Assembly (NCBI GenBank): GCA_050951805.1
Contig: JBMNJT010000008.1
Coordinates: forward strand, 259,061 to 323,060
DNA length: 64,000 nucleotides
Source: Bacillota bacterium
GTDB taxonomy: Bacteria > Bacillota > DTU025
Direction: 5' to 3'
The notes under the pieces were generated by a model. It was not told the DNA's origin. It ran no database searches and saw only the letters and a program-made list of their open reading frames with translations. The translations under genes and the position numbers were made by a program. This document shows positions 29,581 to 64,000 of this stretch, piece by piece. Position 1 is the first letter of the stretch. The number at the start of each line of letters is the position of its first letter.

Positions 29581-29589
29581 GGTGGCTCA

Positions 29590-30150
29590 ATGATTACCTG
29601 GTTAAACGCAAATCAAGGCTTTGTAATGTGTTTGCTTACATTTGTATATGTTCTGGCAACAATTGCAATTGTAGTTATGAATAATATGACCATTAAAGAG
29701 ATGAAAGAAGCGAGAGCCGCTGAGAGCCGCCCTTACGTTTTTGTAAGCCTTCATAAAGATCCCAGAGATGTGTGCTTTTATCTACGTGTGAAAAACCACG
29801 GAAAGACCGGTGCAATAATAAATAGGCTACAAATTACACCTATTATCAAACTTGTGGATATTGAAGAAAAGAGTAATTTCTTAGAAAGAAGTATCTTGGC
29901 TCCAAACCAAACGCTTCAATTTATTGTTTTGGAAAAATGGGAAGAAACTTGTGAAAAGGATTATAACGTGGAAATTGAATATACAATGGTCGGGGATGCA
30001 AATAGTAGCTTTCACGAGCAGTATGCTTTGGTGGTTCAATATGCACATCAAATGGGATATACAGACAGGAGCAATAGCAATCTTAGTAACTCGGAGAACT
30101 CATTAAAAAGTATTGCGGAACACTTGGATTCAATTAGAAGTAAACTTTAG
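29590..30150 (+). CDS. hypothetical single-pass membrane protein embedded in the BREX operon
   Basis: GAGGTGG RBS 7 nt upstream of the ATG. N-terminal hydrophobic helix (FVMCLLTFVYVLATIAIVVM) followed by a beta-rich soluble domain of about 150 aa. No family recognised. Confidence 0.6.
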   Translation: MITWLNANQGFVMCLLTFVYVLATIAIVVMNNMTIKEMKEARAAESRPYVFVSLHKDPRDVCFYLRVKNHGKTGAIINRLQITPIIKLVDIEEKSNFLERSILAPNQTLQFIVLEKWEETCEKDYNVEIEYTMVGDANSSFHEQYALVVQYAHQMGYTDRSNSNLSNSENSLKSIAEHLDSIRSKL

Positions 30151-30176
30151 TATTATGAAACGCAAAGGAATTGAGT

Positions 30177-32846: not shown

Positions 32847-32851
32847 ATTTT

Positions 32852-34297
32852 ATGATAGAGAAACGGATAGCAGAGCTTTTTTCAATTCAATATGAAAAGC
32901 GGTTGCTGATATTTGATGCCGGTGGATTTTGTGCTGCCTTTGATTATACCAGGCTGCTTATTTCTCAGAATTTTGAGGTTATCCGGTATGAGGATATTGA
33001 AGCATTCCGGCTAAGGTATGAGCAAGAAATAAGGAATTCTGATAATAAATATGCGGTTATTGTTTGTTCCGACATATATGTGCCGTACGATATAAGGAAA
33101 CAGTTTTTTGAGGTTGAAATTTCTCTAAGAGGCATCTTTCCGAAACTTCATGAAGATACGGTACGCCGGTATATTAAAGACATTGACTTGATTAGCTTTG
33201 CCTATGGGGAGCTTTATTCGTCCTGTGACACCAGGGAAAAGACGGAAATATTTATTTCAGATACGGTCTTTTCAAAGGGAAATATAAAAAACTATTGTGA
33301 GCTAATGATAAAAAACCTTTTGCCTTCCGGCGACAAATCCGGTATTACTGCCAATGGCTGGATTGAGATTGCCCGTAAAAAGGCCTTGATTGATTATTAC
33401 GCTGCCAAAGCAAATATCTCGATCGATACGAGTTTTGTTGACGCGGAATTTGAAAAGTTTATATTTGATGGCTATCAAAAGCTTTCCGGTGAGACCAAAA
33501 AAGAGGCTCCTGCTATCTTGCCTAAAGTAATTGATTTTATAGCGCATGGTAAGACTGCACTTATTGTCGTCGATGGGATGTCGTTATTTGACTTTGAGAT
33601 AATCTCACGATATTTGGAAGGCATTGACTATGAATACCATTGTACTTATGCCCTAATACCAACGACGACGGCTATTTCAAGGCAAGGCCTGCTCAGCGGG
33701 AAGTATCCGCGTGAGTTGGAAAATCCTTTTACTTTAAGCCAAGAAGAAAAGGGCTTTATGGAGGCTGCCAAGAACAGGGGATATACCAAACAGCAAAGCT
33801 TATATGCAAAGGGCTACAATCCGCCCATTAGTCATTTTACAAGGTTTGCGGCTATTATCATTAATGATATAGACGATTTAGTTCACGGTCAAAAGCAAGG
33901 CCGTGTAGGGATGTATAATGACGTTTCGTTATTGGCAAAAAGCGGCAAGTTACAAACATTAATACAAGATTTATATTCACAAGGATTTAATATTTATATA
34001 ACATCCGATCATGGCAACACTCCCTGCATCGGAGCAGGAGCTATCCGCAATGCTGGAGTCGAGGTGGAAACCAGATCCAAGAGGATGTTTGTACTGAAAG
34101 ATTTTGCGGAAGAAAAGGATTCTTTTGGAGACAAAGTCGTGACTTATCCGGGATATTACTTGGATAAAGACTATAAATACTACGTCTGCGAGTCAGGTGT
34201 TTCTTTTGATAATAAGAATGAAGAAGTAATGACACACGGAGGCATCTCCATTGACGAGGTAATTGTCCCATTCATTAAAGTAAAGGCGGTAATTTAG
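32852..34297 (+). CDS. pglZ: PglZ-domain alkaline-phosphatase-fold protein (type 3 BREX)
   Basis: ALIVVDGMSLFDF, PTTTAISRQGLLSG and ITSDHGN motifs are typical of the PglZ/alkaline phosphatase fold. The start follows the helicase stop by a few nt. Confidence 0.8.
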   Translation: MIEKRIAELFSIQYEKRLLIFDAGGFCAAFDYTRLLISQNFEVIRYEDIEAFRLRYEQEIRNSDNKYAVIVCSDIYVPYDIRKQFFEVEISLRGIFPKLHEDTVRRYIKDIDLISFAYGELYSSCDTREKTEIFISDTVFSKGNIKNYCELMIKNLLPSGDKSGITANGWIEIARKKALIDYYAAKANISIDTSFVDAEFEKFIFDGYQKLSGETKKEAPAILPKVIDFIAHGKTALIVVDGMSLFDFEIISRYLEGIDYEYHCTYALIPTTTAISRQGLLSGKYPRELENPFTLSQEEKGFMEAAKNRGYTKQQSLYAKGYNPPISHFTRFAAIIINDIDDLVHGQKQGRVGMYNDVSLLAKSGKLQTLIQDLYSQGFNIYITSDHGNTPCIGAGAIRNAGVEVETRSKRMFVLKDFAEEKDSFGDKVVTYPGYYLDKDYKYYVCESGVSFDNKNEEVMTHGGISIDEVIVPFIKVKAVI

Positions 34298-35002
34298 ATG
34301 GCAAAAATAATTGGACTGTCCCGTTCCATTAGATTGGAATGGCTCAATAAAACTGTAGAACTCGTACTGGAGGGAAAGAACGAAACGCAAATTAAAGACG
34401 AATTGAACGAATACTTGTCCTTTGAAATAAAGAGCCCGACTGTTCTGAGAAAAACACGGGAAATCCTCATGAATATATGGGTGAGGACTCCTGAGGAACT
34501 TTCAACTTTAAAACAGCAAGCTTTAGAAGCTTATAAGGATGAGAAGTCGAATAAACTGGCATTGCATTGGAGCATGATGCTGGTTGCATATCCTGTATTC
34601 TCTGATGTGTGTGCTTTAATAGGCAAGCTCACTAACATCCAGGATACATTTGCGGCATCCTGGCTTAAGGAAAAGCTGTTTGAAATGTGGGGAGAACGGA
34701 CTACGCTGTTTCATTCCAGTGATAAGATATTGCAAACCTTGAAGCAAATTGGAGCTATTGAAAATGAGAAAGTTGGGGTATATCGCATAAAAAAGTACCC
34801 GGTTACCGATGTGAAAACCATACAGGTGTTGTTATTGGCCATCCTTCACTTAAGGGAAAGAGCCTACTATGAAATTGCAGAGCTTTCTTCGGTACCCCAG
34901 GCTTTTCCGTTTGAATACACTGTTTCACTCGAATGGCTGCATGACTCGGATTTATTTACGTTAAGTAACTTTGGCGGCAAAATTGTGTTAACAGTGGATT
35001 AA
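34298..35002 (+). CDS. brxA: BrxA-like protein (type 3 BREX)
   Basis: 234-aa helical protein. The start abuts the pglZ stop (TAGATG). It is the terminal gene, as in the canonical type 3 order. The assignment is mainly by synteny and size. Confidence 0.5.
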   Translation: MAKIIGLSRSIRLEWLNKTVELVLEGKNETQIKDELNEYLSFEIKSPTVLRKTREILMNIWVRTPEELSTLKQQALEAYKDEKSNKLALHWSMMLVAYPVFSDVCALIGKLTNIQDTFAASWLKEKLFEMWGERTTLFHSSDKILQTLKQIGAIENEKVGVYRIKKYPVTDVKTIQVLLLAILHLRERAYYEIAELSSVPQAFPFEYTVSLEWLHDSDLFTLSNFGGKIVLTVD

Positions 35003-38421: not shown

Positions 38422-38603
38422 TGCATAAAACAAATTCAATCTTTCTTAGGGAACTAAGAAAATATAAAGACCATTTAACGAAGCAGCAGTTTAAGACTCT
38501 GCGGGGACAAGTAATAAACGGAGATTGTGAGGGCGCAAAAAAGGGTCTTAAGAAAATATTGAACAGGAGAATGCAGCATGAACATACAAAAAATATCTGT
38601 TGA
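38421..38603 (+). CDS. small hypothetical phage protein
   Basis: 60-aa basic ORF. Its ATG overlaps the TGA of the shifted terS frame. Confidence 0.4.
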   Translation: MHKTNSIFLRELRKYKDHLTKQQFKTLRGQVINGDCEGAKKGLKKILNRRMQHEHTKNIC

Positions 38604-39876
38604 AAAACTTAATCCAGCAGCATACAACCCGCGCAAGGATTTAAAACCTGGCGATAAGGAATATGAAAAGCTAAAACGGTCAATAGAGGAATTTGGCTAT
38701 GTGGAGCCTGTTATCTGGAACCAAAAAACAGGTAATGTGGTAGGCGGGCATCAACGCTTAAAGGTTTTGCTGGACTTGGGACAGACAGAGATAGACTGCG
38801 TCGTTGTAGATCTTGACCCGCAGAGAGAAAAAGCGCTTAATCTTGCTCTTAATAAGATTCAGGGAGAGTGGGACGAGAATAAACTGGCTGAACTGATGGC
38901 TGAGTTGGACGCAGGTGCATTTGATGTTTCGCTTACAGGGTTTGACGCTTCTGAAATAGACGAACTGCTTAACCGATGGTACTCCAAAGAGGCGATACAA
39001 GACAGCTTTGACATAGATAAAGCGCATGAGGAAATTGTGCAGCGCGAGCCTGTAACGAAGCGGGGCGATATCTGGCTTCTCGGGAATCATCGCTTGATGT
39101 GCGGCGACTCTACTAAGGATGAGGATTTTGAGAAGTTGATGGAAGGGTGTCACGCACAGATGGCAGTGACTTCCCCTCCATATGGGGTAGGCAAAGAATA
39201 TGAAAAGGCCGGGATTGAACCATGGTTCGAGACAGTACGCCCAGTGATTAGAAACCTGTGCAGGTATGCAGATATTGTCTGCTGGAACTTAGGTGATCTC
39301 TATGCCACCGGCTCTCAGTTTATTGAACCCACCAGTGTTTACAGCGTGAATATGTTCTTGGACAACGGTTACCGCCCTATCTGGATCCGCATTTGGAAGA
39401 AACAAGGGCAAAATTTCGGCGTAGGACCTTATCATCTTGTTTCAAACAAGCCGGTTCAGCAGTATGAGTATATTTCAGCCTTCAGCAATAAAGGAGAAGT
39501 TGAGGAATATAACGATCAGGAATATGTATGGCTTTCAGCCTTTGCGGGACACAGTTATAAATTTGTGAAACGGCTTACAAAGGAAGAACGCAAGAAATGG
39601 GGCTATGCTGGGATATGGGAGATGACCACTGTACGGGCAAACAAGGAGCATCCTGCAATGTTCCCTGTGGAGCTTCCATGGCGGTGCATCAAAATGCACA
39701 GCGACAAGGGCGGTATTGTGCTTGAGCCGTTCTCTGGTAGCGGAACTACTATAATTGCGGCTGAACAGACCGAGCGTAAATGCTACGCAATGGAGTTATC
39801 CCCTGTTTACTGTGATTTAGCTGTTAAGCGCTGGGAGGAATTCACCGGTGAAAAAGCCATCAAACTGGAGGGTTAA
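38578..39876 (+). CDS. ParB-like nuclease domain / DNA methyltransferase fusion (SPPY type)
   Basis: N-terminal ParB/Srx motif (VGGHQRLKV). Catalytic VTSPPYGVGKEY. SAM motif LEPFSGSGTTIIAAE, with beta-class order (motif IV before motif I). Confidence 0.85.
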   Translation: MNIQKISVEKLNPAAYNPRKDLKPGDKEYEKLKRSIEEFGYVEPVIWNQKTGNVVGGHQRLKVLLDLGQTEIDCVVVDLDPQREKALNLALNKIQGEWDENKLAELMAELDAGAFDVSLTGFDASEIDELLNRWYSKEAIQDSFDIDKAHEEIVQREPVTKRGDIWLLGNHRLMCGDSTKDEDFEKLMEGCHAQMAVTSPPYGVGKEYEKAGIEPWFETVRPVIRNLCRYADIVCWNLGDLYATGSQFIEPTSVYSVNMFLDNGYRPIWIRIWKKQGQNFGVGPYHLVSNKPVQQYEYISAFSNKGEVEEYNDQEYVWLSAFAGHSYKFVKRLTKEERKKWGYAGIWEMTTVRANKEHPAMFPVELPWRCIKMHSDKGGIVLEPFSGSGTTIIAAEQTERKCYAMELSPVYCDLAVKRWEEFTGEKAIKLEG

Positions 39877-39881
39877 GATTT

Positions 39882-41135
39882 ATGGATATACTGAAAATAC
39901 CAACAGAAAAACTAAAACCATCTAAATATAATCCGCGGAAAGATTTAAAGCCTGGTGACCCTGAATATGAAAAATTACGTCGGTCTATTGAAGAGTTTGG
40001 ATATGTAGAGCCGGTCATATGGAATAAACGCACCGGGAATATTGTCGGCGGACATCAGCGTTATAAAGTACTTACAGCTTTGGGGTATAAGGAGATCGAC
40101 TGTGTTGTAGTTGATTTGGATGAACAGCGGGAAAAGGCGCTCAATGTCGCGCTGAATAAAATCAGTGGTGAGTTTGATATTCCGCTTTTGACCGATCTGC
40201 TTATGGATTTAAATGAAGATGGTTTTGACGTTTCTCTTACCGGGTTTGATGCTGCGGAAATTGATGAGTTGTTCCGTGATAAAACAACCGCTAATGTCAA
40301 AGAGGATAATTTCGATACAGAAAAGGCAATTGCAGAGATTAAAATTCCGGTTACCCAAAAGGGCGACATATGGGTACTTGGCAGCCACCGTCTGATGTGC
40401 GGTGATAGCACCATGCTTTCAGATGTGCAAAAGCTGATGAACGGACAAAAGGCGAGATTTGTTTTCACCGACCCACCCTGGAATGTTGATTACGGTTCAG
40501 ATACCAGGCATCCAAGCTGGAAGCCAAGACAAATTCTAAATGACAATATGAGCACCGAAGAATTCGGCGCTTTTTTATTGCGCGCTTTTAAATGCATGAA
40601 AGAGGTTTCTGAAGCCGGATGCATGACCTATGTGGTAATGAGTGCTCAGGAATGGGGCAGTTTGATGAACGTCATGCGGGAGGCAGGGTATCACTGGTCG
40701 AGCACAATTATATGGAAAAAAGACAGCTTGGTACTATCAAGAAAGGACTATCATACCCAGTACGAGCCGATCTGGTACGGTTGGCTTGAAGGAACACGCC
40801 TTTGCCCGCTTAAAGACCGTAAACAGTCAGATGTTTGGGAGATACCCCGTCCTAAAGTATCGGAGGAGCACCCTACCATGAAGCCGGTATCGCTTGTAGC
40901 AAAGGCAATGCTCAATAGTTCCCATATTGGAGATTTAACTCTTGACCTGTTCGGTGGTTCTGGTACGACAATGATTGCGGCACAGCAGACCGGGCGGGTT
41001 TGTTTTATGATGGAGCTTGACTCGAAATACTGCGATGTGATTGTAAAGCGCTATGTTTCACAATTTGGCGCAGATTCAGTATTCTTGGTAACAGGTAGTG
41101 AAAAAATACCTTACGCGGAAACACAGATTGATTAA
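39882..41135 (+). CDS. ParB-like nuclease domain / DNA methyltransferase fusion (DPPW type)
   Basis: The N-terminal 130 aa are highly similar to the upstream paralogue. Catalytic FTDPPWNVDYG. SAM motif LDLFGGSGTTMIAAQ. Confidence 0.85.
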   Translation: MDILKIPTEKLKPSKYNPRKDLKPGDPEYEKLRRSIEEFGYVEPVIWNKRTGNIVGGHQRYKVLTALGYKEIDCVVVDLDEQREKALNVALNKISGEFDIPLLTDLLMDLNEDGFDVSLTGFDAAEIDELFRDKTTANVKEDNFDTEKAIAEIKIPVTQKGDIWVLGSHRLMCGDSTMLSDVQKLMNGQKARFVFTDPPWNVDYGSDTRHPSWKPRQILNDNMSTEEFGAFLLRAFKCMKEVSEAGCMTYVVMSAQEWGSLMNVMREAGYHWSSTIIWKKDSLVLSRKDYHTQYEPIWYGWLEGTRLCPLKDRKQSDVWEIPRPKVSEEHPTMKPVSLVAKAMLNSSHIGDLTLDLFGGSGTTMIAAQQTGRVCFMMELDSKYCDVIVKRYVSQFGADSVFLVTGSEKIPYAETQID

Positions 41136-53261: not shown

Positions 53262-54016
53262 TTAGCTTGCTATTAGCGGCACACAGAGGTAACATGTCAC
53301 ATACCCAAAGGAGGTGAAAACAGTGAGAAAGGTAACAAGGATTGATGGAAACAATGCTCTCCAAGCTTTCAAGCCAAAGGTGAGAGTAGCGGCTTATTGC
53401 AGGGTTTCAACCGACAGTGATGAGCAAATGGCAAGCCTGGAAGCACAAAAAGACCATTATGAATCCTATATAAAAGCAAATCCTGATTGGGAATTTGCAG
53501 GGATTTACTATGATGAAGGCATTTCAGGTACAAAAAAGGAGAACCGGACTGGACTTTTAAGGCTGCTTGCAGATTGTGAAAACAAGAAAATTGACTTTAT
53601 TATAACCAAGTCAGTCAGCAGATTTGCCAGAAACACAACCGACTGCATTGAGATGGTGCGAAAACTTACCGATCTCGGTGTTTTCATCTATTTCGAGAAA
53701 GAGAATATAAACACGCAGCGCATGGAAGGCGAATTGGTGCTGACAATTTTGAGCAGTCTTGCAGAAAACGAGTCATTATCCATTGCAGAAAATAGTAAGT
53801 GGTCTATCAGGCGCAGGTTTCAAAACGGAACATACAAGATTTCATATCCTCCCTATGGTTACGATTATGTGGATGGAAAGCTATTTATCAATAAAGAACA
53901 GGCTGAAATCGTAAAGCGGATTTTTTCCGAGGCTTTGGCCGGTAAAGGCACACAGAAAATTGCAGATGGGCTAAATTCCGATAAAATCCCAACAAAGAGA
54001 GGTTCGCATTGGACAG

Positions 54017-55624
54017 GGTCACGTCTTGTCAAGTGGTGTAAATTGTCGCCGTGATTCTCCTCGCAATTGAGGTTCCTTAGTATTATTGGGTAAGCTTGTG
54101 CTTACGGTTTTCGGTGCTGCACACGGCGCATATGAGGTTATTCAATGCCACGGCCCTCAGTTTCGTCCGGTGGGCGCCGCCGCCTAGGAGCCACATTGGG
54201 GGCTCCTTGCCGGCGGCGGCGCTGTGCAGCATGCGCTTGAATGGACAGTTTGTGCCGAGCTTCAGAAGAACGCAAGTTTTGGCGTATGCCTAATCAACCG
54301 GAGGAAGCGCCATCGTTGCATCAGTCGGCGGCAACAGTTTGCTCATAGACTCCTGGCTGAAATACCTGCGCAATACGATCCACTCGTCGTTCTGCTCCAT
54401 CATTACTGCTCCCAGAAGCCTTAGCGCGGACTCGTCGTTGGGGAATATGCCTACTACATCAGCGCGACGTTTGATCTCCTTATTCAGCCTCTCAAGAGGG
54501 TTGGTCGAATGAATCTGTCTGTGATGCTCTTTCGGGAACGCCATGTACGCGAGAATGTCATCTTCACACTCACATAGCATCTGCGCAACTTTGGGAAACC
54601 TCTCTTCCAGGGTGGCTGCAACTTGCCGCAGTTGGGCCTTGGCGGTCGCCTGATCAGGTTGGGCGAATATTGTTCGAATGTAGGCGGCGACCATTTGCTG
54701 AGCTCCTCGCGGTACATGGGCCAAAGCGTTTCGCATGAAATGCACTGTGCATCTCTGCCATGATGCCCCCAGCAGAGCCTTCCGTATTGCATTCTTAAGC
54801 CCTTCATGGGCGTCGCTTATCACAAGTTGTACTCCGCTTAGACCCCTTGATGTCAGATCCTTGAGGAATTCATACCAGAATGGCTCGCTCTCACACGGAC
54901 CTATGGCGAAGCCCAGGATCTCGCGTTCGCCGGTCATCTTGACGCCTAGAGCTATTACCAAGGCTTTGTTCACCACGCGGTGATTCGACCTGATCTTCAG
55001 ATATGTCGCATCCAGCCATAGATATGGATACGGCCCTTCAAGCGGTCTGTTGCGGAATAGGTTCACTTCCTCATCCAGTTCCTTTGCAATCCTCGAAACC
55101 TCGCTCTTGTCGATGCCATCGAGGCCTAAAGCTCTTACAAGGTCATCTACCTTGCGTGTGCTAACACCGTGAACGTAAGCTTCCTGAACTACTGATAGGA
55201 TAGCTTTCTCAGTCATCTTGCGAGGCTCTAGAAAGCTGGGAAAGAAACTTCCTTCTCTGAGCTTGGGTATCCTCAGATCGAGCTTGCCAACTCGCGTTTC
55301 CCATGACCTGTCCCTATACCCATTCCGGCTATTGCATCTTTCCGGTGTTCGCTCATATCTATCCGCCCCGATCACTGTTGCAGCTTCCAGCTCAATGAGC
55401 CTTTGAGTTAAAAGCTGCGCGCCTTCCCTCAGAAAATCTGTGTCCGCGTCCATCCCTATCTGGTGTAGAATGTCCAAAAGTGATATGTTTCTCTTAACAG
55501 CTGCCATCGTGGTTACCTCCTCGGTTTGTTTTGGTATTACATCCGAAGAGAATCACATGGCGGCTGTTTCGTCAATACCCCAAAATCCTTCTGCCGAATT
55601 TACACCACTACTTGAGACTCTAAC
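54017..55624 (-). mobile_element. IS256-family insertion sequence (GC-rich)
   Basis: Flanked by a perfect 8-bp direct repeat TTGGACAG (54009-54016 and 55625-55632). Imperfect 28-bp terminal inverted repeats (19/28 matches) end in GGTGTAAATT. One mutator-type transposase gene. Confidence 0.85.
54290..55507 (-). CDS. IS256-family (mutator-type) transposase
   Basis: 405 aa with family-typical sequence ([84 protein letters not shown]). Confidence 0.9.
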
Positions 55625-56734
55625 TTGGACAGCGACAACTATCCGCGGCATTTTAAGCAATGAAAAATATACTGGGGATGTCCTTCTGCAAAAAACCTAT
55701 ACAGATGAGAATTTTAAGCGGCATTATAATCATGGGGAAAAAGATCAATACATGATAAAAGATCATCATGAAGCCATTATATCCCATGAGGAATTTGAAG
55801 CCGCCCAAGAGATATTAAAGCAAAGAGGAAAAGAAAAAGGTGTAATTAAGGGAAGCAGCAAGTATCAAAAACGCTACCCTTTCTCTGGGAAAATCAAATG
55901 CGCAGAATGTGGCAGCAATTTTAAGCGTCGAATTCATGGCAGCGGTGACCGTAAATATATTGCATGGTGCTGCACAAAGCACATAAAGGACGCATCAAGC
56001 TGTTCCATGAAGTTTGTCAGAGAGGATGCGATCCATCAGGCCTTCGTTGTAATGATCAATAAGCTTATTTTCGGTCATAAATTCATTCTAAGGCCATTGT
56101 TGCAAAGCTTAAAGAAAACAAATTACTCAGATAATCTAGCGAAGATTCAAGAATTGGAAACAAAAATCAAAGAAAATACAGAGCGAGTTCAGGTGATTAT
56201 GGGACTTATGGCCAAAGGATACCTGGAACCCGCTCTTTTTAATACACAGAAAAATGAGCTGCTCAAAGAAGCGGTTTTATTAAAAGAACAAAAAGAAGCC
56301 ATAAAACGCGCAATCGATGGGAGTCAGACTATCCTTGTTGAGGTTGAGAAGCTTCTTAAATTTACATCGAAGGCTGAAAAGCAGATTGATGCATTTGATA
56401 GCGATATATTTGAGAATTTTACCCGTGAAATCATTGTGTTTTCACAAGAAGAAATAAGTTTCAAAATGAAATGCGGGTTGAACTTAAGAGAAAGGCTGGT
56501 GAAATGATGAGCCATATACCTTTTGGATATACCATTCAAAACGGCAGGGCTGTCGTTAATGAAGAGGAAGCAGTTAAGATTGAGAAACTATTTGAGTGTT
56601 TTCGGCATAATAGAAATACAGAGAACGGCAGCCAAAATGTCACAGGAGAAATTGAAGATTAAGAAGGCATAACCACCACGCCACAAGAATACCTCCCTAG
56701 ATTTGGCTGTGACCAATAGGGGAGGTAACGTGGA

Positions 56735-58258
56735 GTGATCGCTATGCCTGTACAGTATTATATCAAGCATGCCTTCGAAAACGAAGGTGCATCTATCAGC
56801 GAAATTGCCAGGAAAGTCGACGTGTGTTGGAGAACGGCGGCAAAATATGCTTACAAGGAGGACTGGAATGAATCGCCGCCTACGGTTAGAAAGAAGCGTA
56901 GGCCTGTAATGGATCCCGTGGCAGACATTGTAGATACCTGGCTGCTTGAGGATCAGTTGCTGCAGAGAAAGGATCGGCGCAATGCTGCAGCCATCTATAG
57001 GGAGCTGCGAGATAAACATGGCTTTAAAGGCAGTGAACGCACAGTTAGGGAGTATGTTCGAAATCGGCGGAAAGAGTTGCTCAAGGAAGAACCCGAACCC
57101 ACGGCCTACGTTGAACTCGTGCACGAACCTGGAGAAGCCCAGGCGGATTTCGGAACAATCCGCTGTGTTCGGGATGGAAAGATCGTGGAAGCCAAGGCGC
57201 TTGTTCTTTCGTTTCCATGGTCAAACGCTGGCTTTGCGGTTCCAATGCCATCAGAGAACGGTGAGTGCCTTCTGGAGGGTCTTCGCCTTCTGTTTGAGCA
57301 GGCAGGGGGTGTGCCGCAGAGGCTAGTATTGGACAATGCGACGACTATGGTAGCAACCATAGGGAAGGGCGAAGAACGCACGCTTACGGAGGCGTTCATG
57401 CGCTTTCAGCTCCATTATCGCTTCGATGTTGATTTCTGTGCGCCGGCTCGAGGCAACGAGAAAGGAAATGTTGAAAACAAGGTAGGATACTCACGCCGGC
57501 AATGGCTATGCCCTCTTCAGCCCCTCAACAGTTTCGAGGAGCTCGGCGAACAACTAGCAATTAAGGCTATCCGCGACATGGATCGCATTCATTACAAGAA
57601 GGGCAGGACTATAGCCGACATGTGGCGAGAAGAGCAATCAGCGTTGCTGCCGCTCCCAAGCGTTCCATTCGAGGCTGTGCGGCTTGATGCTGCAGTATTA
57701 AACAACTATGCTCAATTCCGCTTCGAGTCGGAAACCTATTCAGTGCCACAGGGGAGACCACGGCAGAAGGTTTTGCTCAGTGTGTATTGGGATCGCATCG
57801 AGGTGCGGAACCGGGAAGGCGAAGCGCTCACAACGCTGCCAAGGCACTACATGCTCAAAGAGCAACCAATTGACTGGCTGGCCCATTTTGAGATCTACTC
57901 ACGTAGGCCACGAGCTGCCGTGCATTCAGCTATGTTCCGCTATCTTCCGAAGGCGGTCCAAGCCTACCTCAAGGAGGCGAATGCATCGGAACGGTCAGCT
58001 AGAGTACGGTTCGTGAGAGACATGCTGAAGATGTATTCCATAGACGAAGTAGCTGAGGCGCTTGAGGCGTTGCCAGCCGATAGGCGCGCCAACCCCGCGA
58101 ACGTTGAGCTCAAGCTGTATGCGCTTAACCCCGAAAACGGGCTTCCCGAACCTATTGCCGAGGGATACACGCCAATTGAAGTAGCAGCTTACAATCCAGA
58201 TTCCGCAGTCTACGACAAGCTCTTGCCTGCACGGGCTGAAGGAGTGGTCAAGGCATGA
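56735..58258 (+). CDS. istA: IS21-family transposase IstA
   Basis: 507 aa. N-terminal HTH (ASISEIARKVDVCWRTAAKY), a DDE core (GEAQADFG...LVLDNATT...GNEKGNVENKVGY) and a typical C-terminal domain. Confidence 0.9.
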   Translation: MIAMPVQYYIKHAFENEGASISEIARKVDVCWRTAAKYAYKEDWNESPPTVRKKRRPVMDPVADIVDTWLLEDQLLQRKDRRNAAAIYRELRDKHGFKGSERTVREYVRNRRKELLKEEPEPTAYVELVHEPGEAQADFGTIRCVRDGKIVEAKALVLSFPWSNAGFAVPMPSENGECLLEGLRLLFEQAGGVPQRLVLDNATTMVATIGKGEERTLTEAFMRFQLHYRFDVDFCAPARGNEKGNVENKVGYSRRQWLCPLQPLNSFEELGEQLAIKAIRDMDRIHYKKGRTIADMWREEQSALLPLPSVPFEAVRLDAAVLNNYAQFRFESETYSVPQGRPRQKVLLSVYWDRIEVRNREGEALTTLPRHYMLKEQPIDWLAHFEIYSRRPRAAVHSAMFRYLPKAVQAYLKEANASERSARVRFVRDMLKMYSIDEVAEALEALPADRRANPANVELKLYALNPENGLPEPIAEGYTPIEVAAYNPDSAVYDKLLPARAEGVVKA

Positions 58259-59046
58259 CAGACTCTTTGCTTCAGAAGCAGTGTAAGATGCTCAAACTCG
58301 GTTCGGTGAGCCAGACCTACAATGAAATACCCTTTGAAAGCAGAGAGCAATTCCTGACTGATCTATTTGCAGAAGAGCTAAGAAACCGAGAGAAGAATCG
58401 AAACCGGCGAAGGTTGAAGCGTGCAGGGTTTCCGCAAACCAAGACGCTGGAGGAGTTCTCCTGGGACAACATCATATTGCCGCCCCAAACCACGATAGAA
58501 CATCTAACCGAACTGAGGTTCATCGATGAGAAGGAGTCCCTGATTTGCATGGGCGGCGTGGGGACAGGCAAAACTCATCTTGTGATAGCGCTGGGGCTTA
58601 AGGCTGTCCTCAGCGGAAAGGAGGTCCGATTCTTTCAGACAGTTGATCTGGCAAACCGCTTGCTGGAGAAGAACGCAAAAGGGACTCTTGGAAGCTTAAT
58701 ACGCGATCTCGAATCATGCGATCTGCTTATCGTGGATGAACTGGGCTTCCTACCTCTACCCCGTCACGCAGCAGAGCTCTTGTTCCAAGTAATCGCCAGC
58801 TGCTATGAGCGCCGAAGCGTAGCCATCACTACGAACCTTGAGTTCGGACAATGGAACACGGTAATCAACGACAGCCGGCTCACTGCCGCGCTCATTGACA
58901 GGCTTGTTCATCACGGACATGTGCTTGCATTCACAGGGGAGAGCTACCGTCTACGGCACGCCCTCTCCCAATTGCATGTCCCAGATGACGTTGGAGGTGC
59001 CCACCCCCAACAAAACACTATTTACAAAAACGACCCGGCCCAATAG
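58255..59046 (+). CDS. istB: IS21-family helper ATPase IstB
   Basis: Walker A GGVGTGKTHLVIALG and Walker B LLIVDELGF. The start overlaps the istA stop. Confidence 0.9.
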   Translation: MTDSLLQKQCKMLKLGSVSQTYNEIPFESREQFLTDLFAEELRNREKNRNRRRLKRAGFPQTKTLEEFSWDNIILPPQTTIEHLTELRFIDEKESLICMGGVGTGKTHLVIALGLKAVLSGKEVRFFQTVDLANRLLEKNAKGTLGSLIRDLESCDLLIVDELGFLPLPRHAAELLFQVIASCYERRSVAITTNLEFGQWNTVINDSRLTAALIDRLVHHGHVLAFTGESYRLRHALSQLHVPDDVGGAHPQQNTIYKNDPAQ

Positions 59047-59421
59047 GGCCCTGAGATCCGACCCCGGGCGTGGTGGTAGCCTATGCATTTGAGGCTTATC
59101 TTTCCGGGCTTTCTTTAACCGAAGCAGCCCAAAAAGCGGGCATTAAGCGCTACCACACATCTATTGCAAGAATGCTTTCAGATAAACGGTATGTTGAGGA
59201 CAAATTTTATCCGCCAATTATCAGCAAGGACACATTCGAAAAAGCACAACTGGAAAGACACAGGCGAGCTGAGGCGCTTGGCAGGATTTATGAACATAAA
59301 GGAAATGAAAAGAAATGCCTGAATTTTAAGTTTCATGCTTCAATGCCAGATAATCTATACGATGATCCATTTCAGCAGGCAGAGTATGCTTATAGTCTTA
59401 TTAAGAGCGAGGTGATTTTAG

Positions 59422-60993
59422 ATGACAACCAGGAATGTTACGGTAATTCCTGCCCGTAAGCGAATCGGGAATAGTGCAAAGGCCGAGGAATTGCCTAAGC
59501 TTCGGGTAGCAGCTTACTGTCGTGTTTCTACGGACAGCGAGGAGCAGGCAACCAGTTATGAAGCGCAAATTGAGCACTACACAAACTATATCAAAAGCAA
59601 TCCCGAATGGGAGTTAGCAGGTATATTTGCAGATGAAGGTATTACCGGAACTAACACAAAAAAGCGTGAAGAATTTAACCGGATGATAGAAGAATGCATG
59701 CAGGGCAAAATCGATATGATAATTACAAAATCTATCAGCCGTTTTGCAAGAAATACGCTTGACTGCCTGAAGTACATAAGGCAGCTTAAAGACAAGAACA
59801 TCCCAGTTTATTTTGAAAAGGAAAATATAAACACAATGGATTCCAAAGGGGAAATCCTGCTGACCATCATGGCATCTTTAGCACAGCAAGAAAGCCAATC
59901 GTTAAGCCAGAATGTAAAACTGGGGATTCAATACCGATACCAGCAAGGAAAAATCCATATCAATCACAACCGGTTTCTTGGCTATACAAAGGATAAGGAT
60001 GGCAATTTAGTTATCGTTCCTGAAGAAGCTGAAATTGTTAAGCGCATTTACAGAGAATATCTTGAAGGATCCAGTATGCTGCAGATAGCAAGAGGTCTGG
60101 AAGCTGACGGAATTCTGACGGGTGCAGGCAATCACAGATGGCATACCAGCACCATCAATAAGATTTTGAGGAATGAAAAATACATCGGTGATGCGCTGCT
60201 GCAGAAAACCTATACGGTAGATTTTTTATCGAAGAAAAGGGTACCCAATAACGGTATAGTTCCACAATACTATGTAGAAAACAGCCATGAGCCTATAATC
60301 CCGCGTGAAATCTTTATGCAGGTTCAGGAACAGCTTGTCAAAAGAAGATGTGTGCATATAAGTAAGAACGGAAAGAAGAGAAACTATAGCAATAATCATC
60401 CTTTATCACAGATGGTCTTTCTGCGGCAACTGTCATGAAATATTCCGCAGGGTTCATTGGAATAACCGAGGGAAAGAAATCAATCGTATGGAGATGCGTC
60501 AGCCGATTGGAAAACACCGGTTTGTTTTGTACCGCTTCCACTATACTTGAAGATACGCTTAAAGAGAAAATTGTAGAAGCCATCAATGTAGCGGTCAGCG
60601 GAAAAAACTCTTTTCTGGCCATACTGAAGAAGAATATTGAAACCGTATTAAGCGAGGATTTGGATGAGAGTACATCAGATATTGATAAAAGGCTGGAAGA
60701 ACTCCAAACCGAGTTGATCCGAAAAGGCAAATTCAAAGGAAGCATACGATAATATTGTCAATGAGATTTACCGTTTGCGGGACTTAAGGCAAGAAACCCT
60801 TTCGAGAAACGCTCTCCGCAAAGATAAGAGGGATCGGATTGCTGAGATGACTGATTTCCTTAACACGCAAACCGGTGATATTACGGAGTTCGATGATAAA
60901 CTGGTCAGAAGACTGGTTGAAAAAGCAACGGTATATGATGACAGGTTAATGGTAGAGTTTAAGTCGGGATTAGAAATAGAAGTGAATCTATAA
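59422..60993 (+). pseudogene. large serine recombinase with three frameshifts
   Basis: Intact resolvase domain ([25 protein letters not shown]). Homology then jumps frame at about 60417 (..[20 protein letters not shown]), about 60468 (KSIVWRCVSRLENTG..) and about 60722 (..ANSKEAYDNIVNEIYRLRDLRQ..EFKSGLEIEV). Each jump is at a homopolymer run. Confidence 0.75.
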
Positions 60994-61008
60994 GATTGTA
61001 ATAAGATT

Positions 61009-61052
61009 GCCGCCAGTTGAGGAGGAAACCTTCTTAATTGGCGGCTTTTTTA
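61009..61052 (+). terminator. rho-independent terminator after the recombinase module
   Basis: GCCGCCA...TGGCGGC stem followed by TTTTTT. Confidence 0.6.
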
Positions 61053-61056
61053 TTTT

Positions 61057-61070
61057 TATACAAATGTATA
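61057..61070. promoter_or_regulatory. palindrome TATACAAATGTATA (possible operator)
   Basis: TATACA / TGTATA arms separated by AA. It lies 11 nt upstream of the -35 of the next promoter. Confidence 0.35.
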
Positions 61071-61080
61071 AACAAATATA

Positions 61081-61109
61081 TAGACAAATAAATATTTTTC
61101 ATATATAAT
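61081..61109 (+). promoter_or_regulatory. putative sigma-70 promoter
   Basis: TAGACA, a 17-nt spacer, then TATAAT. It lies 20 nt upstream of the ATG 61129, which is preceded by GAGGTGG. Confidence 0.45.
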
Positions 61110-61128
61110 TGTAATGAGGTGGTGAATT

Positions 61129-61530
61129 ATGGATATTAGAATAGACAGCTTAATTCCCTTTGATTCATTGAAAACCAATATAGACCATGTATTCTCTGTT
61201 GTTGATAAAAACGGAAAAGTTGTTCTGCTTAAAGATAATAAGCCGGTTTATATAGTCTTAAAATACGATGAAAATAATTTAACTGATGTAGGAATTAGCA
61301 TGAGCGAAATGCCTAACTATACGCTTCATGAAGCTATGAGAATTGTCTTATCAGAGGCGGAAAACAAAACGATGCATGCTGCTGAACTTGCCGATGAGAT
61401 ATATAGGCGTAGGCTGTATTTAAAAAAGGATGGCAGTAAGGCGGAATATACACAGATAAGGGCAAGGTGCGGGCATTACCCTGATATGTTTGAAGCATTG
61501 CCGGGAAACCGTATCAAATTAAAAGATTAA
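61129..61530 (+). CDS. fusion of a Phd/YefM-like antitoxin-fold N-terminus and a HARE-HTH-like winged helix
   Basis: The N-terminus KTNIDHVFSVVDKNGKVVLLKDNKPVYIVLKYDE fits the Phd/YefM pattern. The C-terminus YTLHEAMRIVLSEAENKTMHAAELADEIYRRRLY..KAEYTQIRARCGHYPDMFEALPGNRIKL fits the HARE-HTH pattern (RpoE-delta N-terminal domain type). Recognised by eye only. Confidence 0.5.
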   Translation: MDIRIDSLIPFDSLKTNIDHVFSVVDKNGKVVLLKDNKPVYIVLKYDENNLTDVGISMSEMPNYTLHEAMRIVLSEAENKTMHAAELADEIYRRRLYLKKDGSKAEYTQIRARCGHYPDMFEALPGNRIKLKD

Positions 61531-61574
61531 AGTATAGCGCTAAGCATGAGGAGAAGCTATGGAAAGGTGATAAT

Positions 61575-62309
61575 ATGGCGGAACATTTGCTTGTAACAAT
61601 AGGAAAAGCACGATTTAGTGATTCACAAAGACATCTTATTCCTTTTGTTAATGACATAGAACATGATAAATTTCTTAACGATATTGAAAACACGCCCCAT
61701 GCTTTTGTTTTAGCCTGCTTGATGGATAGGCAGATTAAAGCGGAGCGAGCGTGGTCAATTCCCTTTAGAATAAGGGAGATTATAGGAAGCTTTAAAATTG
61801 ATGATTTAGCCAGCGTTTCACTTGAAGAGTACAAGAATATTTTTAATAGAAATGTCTTGCATAGATTTAACGATACAATGGCAGAAGTGTTTTATTCTGC
61901 AGTTCAGGATATTAAAGTAAAGTATAATGGGGATGCTTCGCGAATATGGAGCAACAACCCTAGTAGCGCAAAAGTGGTTTATGAATTCTTGCAGTTTAAA
62001 GGAAGCGGCAAAAAAATTGCCACAATGGCGGCTAATATTCTTGCCACACAATTTAAGATCCCGTTTTCTGATTATTACTCAATTGACATATCACCAGATG
62101 TGCATATTCTAAGAGTAATGCGACGGACAGGTTTGGTTGACAATAACGCTGATTTAGATTCAATTATCTATAAGGCAAGAGAGTTAAATCCTGAGTTTCC
62201 TGGGATTATAGATTTTTCATGCTGGGAGATCGGGCGAACCTGGTGCAGGCCGAGTAATCCTAATTGCAACGAATGTATTATTAATTCTGAATGCAAGAAG
62301 AGGGTTTAA
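61575..62309 (+). CDS. EndoIII-like HhH-GPD superfamily protein with Fe-S cluster loop
   Basis: HhH with lysine (FKGSGKKIATMAANIL). Downstream Asp motif (SPDVHILRVMRRTGL). C-terminal C-X6-C-X2-C-X5-C (CRPSNPNCNECIINSEC), which is the same spacing as the Nth/MutY cluster loop. Confidence 0.6.
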   Translation: MAEHLLVTIGKARFSDSQRHLIPFVNDIEHDKFLNDIENTPHAFVLACLMDRQIKAERAWSIPFRIREIIGSFKIDDLASVSLEEYKNIFNRNVLHRFNDTMAEVFYSAVQDIKVKYNGDASRIWSNNPSSAKVVYEFLQFKGSGKKIATMAANILATQFKIPFSDYYSIDISPDVHILRVMRRTGLVDNNADLDSIIYKARELNPEFPGIIDFSCWEIGRTWCRPSNPNCNECIINSECKKRV

Positions 62310-62365
62310 ACAATTTTTACATAATAAGATATATTTTGCGGCAGTTTGCCTTGGAGGTGATATAG

Positions 62366-62911
62366 TTGAAACGTATAAGTGTTCTACTTGTAATAGGACT
62401 GGTAATTATAATCCTTGCTGGCTGTGGAGGGGTAGAAACACGAGAAAAAATATTACCGGATGGTAGGAAACTTATAATTGATGCTGCTGGAAAAATCATA
62501 TCTGATAGTAATCCTGAACCACTTGAAGGGTATACCTATGACGAACAGATAGGACGGTATGTTAATGAAACTACCGGCATTTGGTATATCGTTGAAAATG
62601 GGCAAAAGGTAATACCGCCCGAAGAATACTTTGATCCTGATGAAGTAGGCATACCCAGCGGTATAAATATTTCAAACCGTCCCGACGATGTATGGGAACT
62701 TAAAGAGGTACGTGAGGTAACCATTCAATCAGGAGATACGCTGGTTGATATTATCAACCCGTACTTTATGAATGAACATTACAGAATGAATTATGAATGG
62801 TATGCTAAACAGGTTCTGGAACTTAACAACATTACCGAACCTAACTTTATAAAAGCGGGAGAAACTTTAAAGATACCGATTTATATTGACAAAGGTGCAA
62901 AAGTGAACTAG
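62366..62911 (+). CDS. lipoprotein with C-terminal LysM-like domain
   Basis: Signal peptide with lipobox (IIILAGC). The C-terminus VTIQSGDTLVDII...ITEPNFIKAGETLKIP is LysM-like. TTG start follows GGAGGTGA. Confidence 0.65.
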   Translation: MKRISVLLVIGLVIIILAGCGGVETREKILPDGRKLIIDAAGKIISDSNPEPLEGYTYDEQIGRYVNETTGIWYIVENGQKVIPPEEYFDPDEVGIPSGINISNRPDDVWELKEVREVTIQSGDTLVDIINPYFMNEHYRMNYEWYAKQVLELNNITEPNFIKAGETLKIPIYIDKGAKVN

Positions 62912-63023
62912 TGAGTGGTAGCATGAAACAGTTAAAAAACGTGTTGCTGTTCTCTGCCTGGTTTCTATAAAAGACCGGAACAGGGTATTTTTATTATTGT
63001 TAAGCTGAAAGGGATGATAAAGA

Positions 63024-63497
63024 TTGGCTCAAATACAATCATTGATGCGGGCTGTAATAAACTTTTATAATTTTAACAACAGAAATGCTCCCGTAGTAAT
63101 CACAAGAGTAAAAGAACACGACAGTGAAAGAATGTGCATGGACAGACTAGAAAGAGCGATTTTTGACTCATGTGATGAAGAATGCAAGGCAACTCCATCA
63201 AGATATGCAATATGGGGAGAAGACATCCGTAGCCTTAGTATTTCTGCAAAAGAAGCAATGAAAAACGGGAACATCGAACAAGCAGAAAAATTAATGAATC
63301 AAGTTATTAATAGTATGGGCGCATTTATAGACGCTCAATTGATACTCAGCAATTTGCCTGGAAACATCAGCTTTGTAAAATCCAAAGATATTATTAAATC
63401 CTATATTGCCAGACTGCAAGAGAACAGCGAGGTGTCAGATTCTGAAAAGGACTATTTAATTGACAGCATGAAAGAGATAATGATTAGCATTGAGTAA
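63024..63497 (+). CDS. hypothetical protein
   Basis: 157-aa ORF (TTG start; alternative ATG near 63132). Helical. No family recognised. Confidence 0.35.
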   Translation: MAQIQSLMRAVINFYNFNNRNAPVVITRVKEHDSERMCMDRLERAIFDSCDEECKATPSRYAIWGEDIRSLSISAKEAMKNGNIEQAEKLMNQVINSMGAFIDAQLILSNLPGNISFVKSKDIIKSYIARLQENSEVSDSEKDYLIDSMKEIMISIE

Positions 63498-63783: not shown

Positions 63784-64000
63784 ATGAAAATTGCTTTGAT
63801 TTCTTGCACAAGTAGGAAAAAATCATATAAATGCCAAGCAAAAGATTTATATTCAGAAAGCTCGCGGTTTCAGCTGGCCTTTTCTTTTGCAAAGCTTATT
63901 GCAGATAAAATATTTATCCTTTCTGCAAAATATGGCTTAATACCAGAGAACATGATTATCGAACCTTATAATGAAACCTTGAAAGATAAAAGTACTCAGG
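63784..64000 (+). CDS. hypothetical protein, 3'-truncated by the window edge
   Basis: The ATG follows AGGTGG. MKIALISCTSRKKSYKCQAKDLYSESSRFQLAFSFAKLIADKIFILSAKYGLIPENMIIEPYNETL resembles a widespread uncharacterised family (possibly DUF6884, from memory). Confidence 0.4.
   Translation, partial: MKIALISCTSRKKSYKCQAKDLYSESSRFQLAFSFAKLIADKIFILSAKYGLIPENMIIEPYNETLKDKSTQ

Follow-up and report, generated by a model that had tools for sequence, protein, structure and literature searches.

A conserved leader gene followed by varied cargo, here a predicted iron-sulfur DNA glycosylase, on a mobile element of Bacillota

Results

Layout of the locus

The locus described here consists of two co-oriented genes near the 3' end of a 64,000-nucleotide stretch of DNA from a Bacillota bacterium (lineage DTU025; assembly GCA_050951805.1, contig JBMNJT010000008.1, positions 259,061 to 323,060 of the forward strand). 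The whole stretch is called the window, and its positions are used throughout unless another locus is named. The first gene (gene 1) encodes a small protein with a Phd/YefM-like and a HARE-HTH domain, and the second (gene 2) encodes a helix-hairpin-helix (HhH) protein with an iron-sulfur (Fe-S) cluster loop. An earlier reading of the sequence alone had taken the two for a dedicated, self-contained cassette on an AT-rich island, possibly a defence module or a toxin-antitoxin-like pair. Its description of the locus was accurate: the terminator, palindrome, promoter and both genes lie where it had placed them, the genes are separated by 44 nt, and the GC content is 36-38% at 60-64 kb versus 51-56% in the chromosomal part of the window (ClpC, RadA, IspDF, CysS). 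The features are as follows.

Up to 60993: end of an upstream serine-recombinase gene fragment, preceding gene 1
61009 to 61045, plus strand: intrinsic terminator of the serine-recombinase gene, with a 17-bp stem containing 9 GC pairs, then a T-run, TTTTTTATTT
61055 to 61072: palindrome, a perfect 8-2-8 inverted repeat, TTTATACA-AA-TGTATAAA, with the core TATACAAATGTATA at 61057 to 61070
61055 to 61095: operator-like repeats, with ACAAAT cores at 61060, 61072 and 61084 (12-nt spacing)
61081 to 61109, plus strand: sigma-70-type promoter TAGACA-17-TATAAT, 11 of 12 matches
61104 to 61113, reverse strand: half-site TACAATTATA, overlapping the -10 box
61129 to 61530, plus strand: gene 1, 133 amino acids (aa), ribosome-binding site GAGGTG
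Within gene 1: Phd/YefM-like N-terminal domain, residues about 1 to 49; disordered linker, residues 50 to 59; HARE-HTH winged helix, residues about 62 to 133
61575 to 62309, plus strand: gene 2, 244 aa, ribosome-binding site AAGGTG, 44 nt 3' of gene 1

The terminator at 61009-61045 is also kept in related loci, and no terminator lies between gene 1 and gene 2 in the window.

Gene 1 encodes a two-domain protein

The assignment of a HARE-HTH domain to gene 1 was borne out at the level of the family, and a Phd/YefM-like N-terminal domain is a probable assignment. On its own, the window protein matched the Pfam models HARE-HTH with E=5.9e-4 (20.6 bits versus a cut-off of 25.9) and PhdYeFM with 0.013, and all domain matches of the window gene 1 and gene 2 proteins fall below the Pfam gathering scores. 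Among 28 relatives of gene 1, HARE-HTH (PF05066) matched 20 (best 1e-10) and PhdYeFM_antitox matched three (best 8.6e-8). An exhaustive search yielded approximately 425 clusters of gene 1 relatives (clustered at 50% identity), including 90 at E<=1e-10, and the two-domain layout persists down to about 35% identity. Relatives are named 'antitoxin Phd' by the Joint Genome Institute (JGI).

The AlphaFold model of gene 1, with a predicted local distance difference test (pLDDT) score of 81.8, consists of a beta-alpha-beta-beta N-terminal domain, the linker and an H-beta-H-H-beta-beta winged helix, the residues 66-131 of which reach pLDDT values of 84-95. The N-terminal domain superposes locally on VapB46, Phd (including operator-bound Phd, 4zm2) and RelB with root-mean-square deviations of 1.7-2.6 Å over approximately 40 residues, at Foldseek E-values above 0.1. 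The C-terminal domain superposes locally on forkhead and MarR winged helices in Foldseek, and its match to the N-terminal domain of the RNA polymerase delta subunit (2krc) is weak (probability 0.33). A Foldseek search with the whole chain gave no match at E<=0.001. Against PADLOC-DB v2, gene 1 had marginal matches only (SAVED3 3.5e-3, DrmD 0.015), and neither gene 1 nor its relatives had a WYL or other BrxR/CapW-type Pfam match.

The view of HARE-HTH as a reader of modified DNA is a proposal from comparative genomics, for which pull-down support comes only from ASXL1, the HARE-HTH domain of which bound DNA with N6-methyladenine (6mA) (PMC6591016). Proteins 92-98% identical to gene 1 are encoded in Ureibacillus, Thermoanaerobacterium, Thermoclostridium, Herbinix, Tepidanaerobacter, Fervidobacterium and an Atribacterota metagenome-assembled genome, and the element lineage that carries near-identical copies is very mobile. 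The literature searched contained no paper that combines the terms Phd/YefM, HARE-HTH and Fe-S glycosylase in this sense, and the combination of this architecture with a TACAAATGTA operator appears to be undescribed so far.

Operator-like repeats cover the gene 1 promoter

The palindrome TATACAAATGTATA of the sequence-only reading proved to be the core of the larger inverted repeat listed above and to belong to a conserved cis-element, a TACAAATGTA-type repeat that recurs 5' of gene 1 relatives. There, two or three copies of the motif (A/G)TACAAAT(G)TAT adjoin or overlap the -35 box, and the sequence that flanks the copies is not conserved; in the window, the third ACAAAT core overlaps the -35 box. 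The pattern TACAA[AT]NNTA has a density of 11.4/kb 5' of gene 1 relatives versus 0.14/kb elsewhere in the same loci (approximately 80-fold) and was found in 33 of the 49 non-redundant upstream regions examined. When all 6-mers were counted without bias, TACAAA ranked first, in 38 of these regions versus 2.9 expected. Elsewhere in the window, outside 60991-61113, the motif occurs at chance level only. The strong enrichment at this position makes the TACAAATGTA-type repeat a likely operator. The proposed promoter is the best match between 60700 and 63900, a region in which promoter-like matches as such are not above chance (14 found versus 12.1 expected); TAGACA or TTGACA and TATAAT are retained in diverged gene 1 loci.

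The cargo behind gene 1 is highly variable

The genes around gene 1 were surveyed in 80 loci from different species, with gene 1 relatives of 39-98% identity; the locus scan was built on 11 closer gene 1 sequences, and gene 2 was sought within 6 kb. The first co-oriented gene 3' of gene 1 differed greatly between loci and fell into more than 30 unrelated clusters. The nameable ones are mostly defence genes: GmrSD-type type IV restriction enzymes (HEC-06/Orf5/SspE models) are first in nine loci, gene 2 in eight, and Schlafen/AlbA_2 (SLFN_AlbA_2) proteins with a Fic-like C-terminal domain in seven. PsyrT is also among the genes behind gene 1 relatives (4e-274), and the commonest module contains a fusion that matches the PADLOC candidates PDC-M57A and PDC-M57B. 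In total, the PADLOC matches of neighbouring cargo comprise PDC-M57A/B, PDC-S60, HEC-06/Orf5 and PsyrT. In 29 of 74 loci, at most 75 nt separate gene 1 from the gene that follows. An architecture of a conserved leader gene plus swappable cargo is regarded, with considerable confidence, as the arrangement that underlies these loci.

In two of them (L038, 6792-7586; L040, 1569-2363), a gene 1 relative with 73% identity is followed by a 264-aa protein that has an HhH- and Asp-like appearance ('GIGFSLA...KPDVHLIDVF'). It was considered as a possible second glycosylase-type cargo, but its hhalign probability against the gene 2 family was only 3.6%, and it had no Pfam or Protein Data Bank (PDB) match.

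Gene 2 belongs to the Fe-S HhH-GPD glycosylases

The motifs that had been recognised in gene 2 can be read directly from its translation: the HhH with its lysine (GSGKKIA, residues 143-149), the aspartate motif (PDVHILRV, residues 174-181) and the cluster loop C224-X6-C231-X2-C234-X5-C240. The window protein alone matched the Pfam models HhH-GPD (3.4e-3) and EndIII_4Fe-2S (0.097), and structure prediction supported this assignment. The top Foldseek matches of the AlphaFold2 model (pLDDT 89.6) are the endonuclease III (EndoIII) structures 1orn, 1p59 and 2abk (probability 1.00, template modelling (TM) scores 0.58-0.63), and the best PDB matches taken together are EndoIII and MutY/MUTYH, with TM scores of 0.55-0.63 and 13-20% identity. 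When gene 2 was aligned by hhalign with Escherichia coli Nth, in a sequence that agrees with 2abk in residues 135-204, the probability was 93%; K147 corresponded to K120, D175 to D138, and the four cysteines to the cluster ligands. K147, D175, C224, C231, C234 and C240 are invariant in 42 relatives with 63-91% identity.

The doubt of the sequence-only reading that gene 2 is a housekeeping nth was well founded, because the protein scores far below the curated cut-offs: 19.2 bits versus 211.7 for the nth equivalog TIGR01083, 16.8 versus 405 for NF007978, and 14.5 versus 286.5 for the mutY equivalog. It ends four residues past the cluster loop and lacks the MutY C-terminal domain that recognises 8-oxoguanine. 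Its N-terminal half is nearest to TIGR03252 ('HhH-GPD-type base excision DNA repair protein', 3e-17), with residues 26-160 aligned to profile positions 6-139 of 189 and 62.8 bits versus a cut-off of 136.5; judged by these scores, gene 2 is related to TIGR03252 but belongs to a different family. No paper that mentions TIGR03252 was found in the literature searched. The gene 2 family comprises more than 3,000 database proteins, with 60-70% identity across Clostridia, Lentisphaeria, WOR-3 and Brocadia. Its names at NCBI are only 'iron-sulfur cluster loop' or 'endonuclease III', and this Fe-S glycosylase family appears to be undescribed so far.

Judged from the conserved residues, it is quite likely that gene 2 encodes a catalytically active glycosylase, probably a bifunctional one with an additional apurinic/apyrimidinic (AP) lyase activity. 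Because the EndoIII lysine and aspartate are intact, the enzyme is predicted to flip a base out of the helix, to cleave the N-glycosidic bond via a Schiff base with the lysine and to nick the resulting abasic site.

Linkage of the two genes is confined to one lineage

The idea of a dedicated two-gene module did not survive the surveys. In the 80 loci described above, a full-length gene 2 was found near gene 1 in only ten, all of them among the 21 loci with a gene 1 at least 88% identical; thus, gene 2 is present in ten of 21 otherwise near-identical elements and missing in the remainder. The 59 loci with a more diverged gene 1 had no gene 2, save a remnant of 32 aa in L037 (6443-6538), which matches the N-terminus of gene 2 with 81% identity, lies directly 3' of a 77%-identical gene 1 and therefore suggests that gene 2 was formerly present there and has since been lost. 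A second survey started from gene 2: it comprised 93 loci of metagenomic or viral origin, in which the gene 2 relative was 34-98% identical, and used 28 gene 1 relatives as queries. A gene 1 relative was found near gene 2 in seven of the 93, in all of which gene 2 was at least 91% identical, and in none of the other loci, approximately 69 of which had at least 500 nt of upstream sequence.

Even within the close lineage the association is loose: in L026 and L031, gene 2 comes behind other genes instead of next to gene 1, and L109 contains gene 2 without gene 1. Neighbourhood mining, which the sequence-only reading had suggested, thus revealed essentially no recurrent linkage of the two families, and on present sequence evidence their linkage is confined to one recently spreading element lineage in which both genes are at least 88% identical. 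Since all co-occurrences fall into one recent lineage, they may stem from one or a few events; adjacency inside a single lineage is no evidence of a functional pair, and genes 1 and 2 are, by these counts, not a matched pair.

Gene 2 replaced part of the usual module by recombination inside gene 1

In the usual module, which encodes proteins 98% identical to gene 1, gene 1 is preceded by a holin, an amidase and two or three large serine recombinases and is followed by a 57-aa Cys-rich open reading frame (ORF), a 157-aa protein, a 463-aa fusion of DUF6884 and GIY-YIG, a 190-aa protein and PRiA4_ORF3; it contains no glycosylase gene. The window differs from this arrangement in the following features.

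61506 to 61535, plus strand: recombination junction, with an allele switch in the last seven codons of gene 1
61510 to 62986, plus strand: replacement segment of 1,477 bp, standing for the usual 261 bp and containing the 3' tip of gene 1, gene 2 and the LysM gene (blastn against L001-L010)
62366 to 62911, plus strand: lipoprotein-like LysM protein, 181 aa (LysM 1.7e-6; YneA-like LysM region)
63024 to 63497, plus strand: 157-aa protein (p157) of the conserved module, no known family
63784 to 64000, plus strand: start of the DUF6884 gene, truncated by the end of the window (DUF6884 7.5e-21; PDC-M57A 8e-22)

On both sides of the segment at 61510-62986, which is the only difference, the window and the usual module are 95-99.5% identical, and from 62987 on, the nucleotide identity to L001 and related loci is 99.5%. 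The body of gene 1 is the common (L001-type) allele, and from about 61506 its last seven codons are those of the allele found in L017-19, loci in which gene 1 and gene 2 are adjacent. Homology to L011, a chromosomal gene 2 locus without gene 1, extends from 61535, just past the gene 1 stop codon, to 62300. Because of this allele switch and the extent of the homology to L011, gene 2, together with its own 40-nt leader, is concluded from the alignments to have entered the element by recombination inside the 3' end of gene 1, which served as the homologous anchor. The 57-aa ORF that was replaced in the window (L001, 6407-6580) starts 2 nt past the gene 1 stop codon and had no family match; it may be a zinc ribbon.

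It follows that the unit is not self-contained, as had been supposed: no terminator is present 3' of gene 2, the module runs on downstream, and gene 2 and the LysM gene are inserted when compared with the module in its commonest form. The arrangement of the window, in which both were inherited together, recurs in L022, L023, L027, L102 and L103. In L023, which is from the cultured strain Thermoclostridium caenicola DSM 19027, the gene 2 protein is 99% identical. A LysM protein follows gene 2 in two unrelated contexts, with 181 aa in the window and with 361 aa and six LysM repeats in L011 (7083-8168); a BLASTP comparison of the two was not significant (best E=0.055). Further downstream, the 157-aa protein had no match in a Pfam search. 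The DUF6884 gene of relatives is the 463-aa fusion, and the full-length version in L001 matches PDC-M57B (1e-71) and PDC-M57A (7e-42) in PADLOC.

Gene 2 relatives occur on phages, conjugative elements and transposon-rich islets

Apart from gene 1, relatives of gene 2 were found in many settings. In nine phage-like loci (L114-116, L120, L130, L181-183 and L190), relatives with 65-72% identity lie between the genes for TerL and portal (for example, L116, 4290-8064), and some relatives on viral contigs adjoin ParB_N and PemK genes. A relative in Brocadia is flanked by transposases and a MazEF pair, one is located in a small islet with Bro-N, and the one in L196 (8001-10047) is part of a conjugative element (TraG/VirD4, TrbL) and is followed after 77 nt by a gene for a phospholipase D (PLD)-family nuclease (PLDc_2/RE_NgoFVII). 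In the transposase-rich region of L020 (4838-6738), an ADP-ribosylglycohydrolase gene ends 27 nt 5' of a relative with 83% identity. The wider family is also present in non-thermophilic metagenomes.

The tight array of L169 (43-2605) contains GmrSD_C, a 325-aa protein with a weak match to nucleoside 2-deoxyribosyltransferase, a DUF6884 protein (139 aa, 1.5e-42) and, beginning 4 nt past it, a gene 2 relative with 61% identity. In the window, DUF6884 is located 1.5 kb 3' of gene 2, and L169 may thus represent a second, independent link between DUF6884 and the gene 2 family. In the literature searched, DUF6884 is mentioned only by the Pfam paper and one genome-mining preprint. In L017 (3302-5489), gene 2 is followed, 12-18 nt on, by genes for a 535-aa and a 192-aa protein, an arrangement also found in L026, L031, L105, L106 and L109, of which L109 lacks gene 1; the three genes may form a genuine unit. 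At its N-terminus, the 535-aa protein is similar to the PADLOC candidate PDC-S60 (1e-27) and, weakly, to DUF4062. A regular partner of the gene 2 family was sought among 109 immediate neighbours, and none was found. A 251-aa neighbour of gene 2 in the viral loci L184-187 ('DSGAFTFF') was considered as a DpdA-like or tRNA-guanine transglycosylase-like protein and was discarded, having no Pfam match.

Discussion

A probably autoregulated leader gene with swappable cargo

The best explanation is that a variable cargo region begins at this locus, at the end of a prophage-like element that integrates via serine recombinases. Gene 1 is probably an autoregulator, by analogy with Phd/YefM N-terminal domains and with RptR: as a dimer, its product would bind the TACAAATGTA-type repeats, which lie over the -35 and -10 boxes of gene 1, and would repress the promoter that drives gene 1 and the genes behind it. 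At the same time, gene 1 would be the conserved anchor in which homologous recombination exchanges the downstream cargo. Gene 2 would be one such cargo, equipped with a 40-nt leader and a ribosome-binding site of its own but probably co-transcribed from the gene 1 promoter, and its product would act alone, without guidance from gene 1. The likeliest substrate would be a non-canonical base in invading DNA, as for Dag and Brig1, because gene 2 occupies a slot of type IV restriction enzymes and its family is found on phages, conjugative elements and transposon-rich islets. This reading as a whole, an autoregulated leader gene plus swappable defence cargo with gene 2 as a stand-alone glycosylase, is given a probability of about 0.55. 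Its weakest part is the anti-phage role of gene 2, which comes from context only and is put at a little under even odds; nevertheless, given the accessory context and the precedent of single-gene defence by Dag and Brig1, defence is the leading hypothesis for gene 2.

Several observations weigh against this explanation. Some of the cargo behind gene 1 relatives is not defence-like, including one protein that resembles a CsoR-type repressor by eye only, and diverged gene 2 relatives have a mixed set of neighbours, with 58 Pfam families in 109 proteins and many genes that are not obviously related to defence. Gene 2 has no match in PADLOC-DB v2, and the 60-70% identity of its relatives across phyla could reflect a conserved, housekeeping-type role in repair. 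The collection of cultured phage genomes in GenBank contained no match for gene 1 or gene 2, and plasmids contained no close relative of gene 2, only distant TIGR03252-type matches in Actinobacteria. The Foldseek matches of gene 1 are individually non-significant (best E 0.02). The arms of the palindrome vary among close relatives (61058, 61066) without compensating changes, and L027, L028, L033 and L036, with a gene 1 of 88-94% identity, have a different upstream region without TACAAAT repeats. In these four loci the leader gene is recombined behind another promoter; its start codon is GTG in three of them. Lastly, the binding, repression, glycosylase activity and phage protection invoked above are all predicted.

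Comparison with known systems

Both parts of the locus are variations on known kinds: gene 1 on the repressors that precede defence genes, and gene 2 on the stand-alone HhH glycosylases carried by mobile DNA. Repressors upstream of diverse defence systems include BrxR/CapW (PMC9122601, PMC9122589, PMC9122588), RptR (PMC12255303) and CapK/CapS (PMC13373217). As with these repressors, a small DNA-binding protein comes first and is co-oriented with varied defence genes. The similarity to RptR extends to the promoter, because RptR binds three direct repeats with a small palindrome in each (PMC12255303), and gene 1 likewise has repeats in its own promoter, three in number, spaced by 12 nt and with a palindromic core. 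However, BrxR and CapW are winged helix-turn-helix-WYL-WCX proteins with a fold unrelated to that of gene 1, and RptR is an all-helical HTH-like dimer, in contrast to the Phd/YefM-like domain plus HARE-HTH of gene 1. By analogy, gene 1 is thus a counterpart of these leader repressors and not a homologous member of their group, and repression is a prediction. With the Phd/YefM antitoxins it would have in common the beta-alpha-beta-beta domain for DNA binding and dimerisation, and it resembles them in its position as the first gene of an operon behind a palindromic operator; it differs in having no conserved toxin partner and, at the C-terminus, a winged helix instead of a disordered toxin-binding tail.

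With respect to gene 2, the closest precedents are Dag1-17, HhH-fold single-gene glycosylases that defend against 7-deazaguanine phages (Getz et al., bioRxiv 10.1101/2025.10.29.685425), and Brig1, a single-gene defence glycosylase against phages with modified DNA that has a uracil-DNA glycosylase (UDG) fold (PMC11078745). All are single-gene DNA glycosylases on mobile AT-rich DNA, as is predicted for gene 2, which also lies near defence genes. Gene 2, compared with the Dags by their published description only, has the HhH-superfamily fold in common with them, and Dag1 likewise appears to be bifunctional, with Lys and Asp residues near the modified base. The differences are that an Fe-S cluster is absent from the text of the Dag paper whereas gene 2 has the Fe-S loop, that Dag1 is undetectable as a glycosylase by sequence whereas gene 2 is detectable (hhalign to Nth, 93%), and that the Dags are integron cassettes in Vibrio; Brig1 differs from the HhH-GPD protein gene 2 in its fold. 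In END nucleases, a PLD nuclease is fused to an inactivated EndoIII domain that serves as a sensor (PMC12191111). They employ an EndoIII-type fold, which gene 2 also has, in defence against hypermodified phage DNA, and the gene 2 relative of L196 lies 77 nt 5' of a PLD-family nuclease gene; yet the EndoIII domain of END nucleases is catalytically dead and fused, whereas gene 2 is a separate protein that retains the catalytic residues. Nth and MutY have in common with gene 2 the fold (TM 0.55-0.63), the HhH-Gly-x-Gly-x-Lys, the catalytic Asp and the C-X6-C-X2-C-X5-C loop. Gene 2 is set apart from them by its 13-20% identity, far below orthologue cut-offs, its TIGR03252-like N-terminal half, the missing MutY C-terminal domain and an accessory, mobile distribution, and from Nth by a 10-residue insertion between Lys and Asp.

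Alternative explanations

The main rival to defence is a role of gene 2 in DNA repair, that is, as a fitness or maintenance gene of mobile elements and phages that removes, for example, oxidised or deaminated bases and is no immune effector, with gene 1 still acting as leader regulator. The removal of such bases would be useful in thermophiles, which many hosts of the element are, and the EndoIII-type active site and Fe-S loop are intact. The relationship of the N-terminal half to the repair family TIGR03252 (3e-17), the strong conservation across phyla, the lack of a PADLOC match and the existence of viral EndoIII-like proteins (Halogranum tailed virus 1, TM 0.68) would also fit. However, the curated cut-offs exclude gene 2 as an orthologue of Nth or MutY, it is present in only ten of 21 near-identical elements, its slot is one that type IV restriction enzymes and further defence genes also take, and the wider family extends to non-thermophilic metagenomes. 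A repair role is judged unlikely, although it has to be taken seriously.

A dedicated defence system of two components, in which the HARE-HTH protein would read modified phage DNA and guide or license the glycosylase, is very unlikely. This explanation could draw on the HARE-HTH assignment, which holds, on the binding of 6mA DNA by ASXL1, on the pair spaced by 44 nt in L017-19, L022-24, L027, L029, L033, L077, L099, L101-106 and L108, and on the gene 2 remnant of L037. Yet the genes co-occur in one recent lineage only, gene 2 is absent from 59 diverged gene 1 loci and gene 1 from approximately 69 diverged gene 2 loci, and gene 2 occurs without gene 1 in phages, conjugative elements and chromosomal islets. 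Furthermore, gene 1 precedes unrelated effectors, and even close relatives have the genes apart (L026, L031) or lack gene 1 (L109).

Gene 1 might instead serve the element itself and could, for instance, act on the neighbouring serine recombinases as a recombination directionality factor or as a maintenance regulator; a serine-recombinase gene lies directly 5' in 32 of the 80 loci and gene 1 is 92-98% conserved across very different hosts. This is highly improbable, because the other 48 loci have no recombinase match within 6 kb, a strong terminator separates the recombinase gene from gene 1, the conserved repeats are at gene 1's own promoter, and the distance to the cargo is at most 75 nt in 29 of 74 loci.

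A toxin-antitoxin-like pair, in which gene 1 would neutralise a genotoxic glycosylase and autoregulate the operon, is suggested by the Phd/YefM-like domain and the JGI names, the antitoxin-first order, the short gap and the promoter-proximal palindrome, but is scarcely credible, because gene 1 ends in a folded winged helix instead of a toxin-binding tail, the supposed toxin varies between loci and is replaced by GmrSD, PsyrT, Schlafen-like and other proteins, and more than 80 gene 2 relatives live without a gene 1 relative, an argument against a toxicity of gene 2 that would require an antitoxin.

Implications

If the explanation by an autoregulated leader gene with swappable cargo is correct, the 133-aa gene and its operator are a compact marker of a cargo-swapping hotspot on mobile elements, the hosts of which are thermophilic and anaerobic Firmicutes, organisms that have been poorly sampled for defence systems. 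Candidate defence genes behind the leader would include those for 104-aa, 264-aa and 935-aa proteins, p157 and the p535/p192 pair, and Phd/YefM plus HARE-HTH would be a new repressor architecture beside BrxR, CapW and RptR. A link between gene 2 and phage base modification would extend the theme of Dag and Brig1 to EndoIII-like enzymes that contain a cluster. One may speculate further, with a low likelihood attached, that gene 1 relatives are a hitherto undescribed class of sensor-regulators, in which the Phd-like domain would shut the promoter at TACAAATGTA and HARE-HTH would sense modified or foreign DNA, releasing the repressor and switching on an effector such as GmrSD, the Fe-S glycosylase or DUF6884-GIY-YIG; the gene 2 family would then be the first Fe-S, Nth-like anti-phage glycosylases, carried also by phages in the TerL-portal slot for competition between phages.

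The surrounding element

The GC content of the window falls from approximately 55% to approximately 41% at about 22 kb, directly after a TRAM/tRNA-U5-methyltransferase gene (20652-22214); the gene 2 relative of L197 is placed after a gene of the same kind. A BREX-like block follows at 22897-35002, with DUF6079/BrxC (23328-26993), an N6_N4 methylase (27058-29580), an SNF2-type helicase (30171-32846), PglZ (32843-34297) and small ORFs that could not be named. Two adjacent genes for fusions of ParB_N and N6_N4 DNA methylase (38578-41135) are located 5' of phage genes, and phage terminase, portal and capsid genes are found at 44.3-50.3 kb. The serine-recombinase genes of the element (53314-61000) are interrupted by two insertion sequences:

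54290 to 55507, minus strand: Mutator-family transposase
56735 to 59046: IS21 IstA/IstB pair

The window copy of the element is thus probably immobilised. An element of Thermoclostridium caenicola (L023), which matches with 92-97% on both sides, is without these two insertions.

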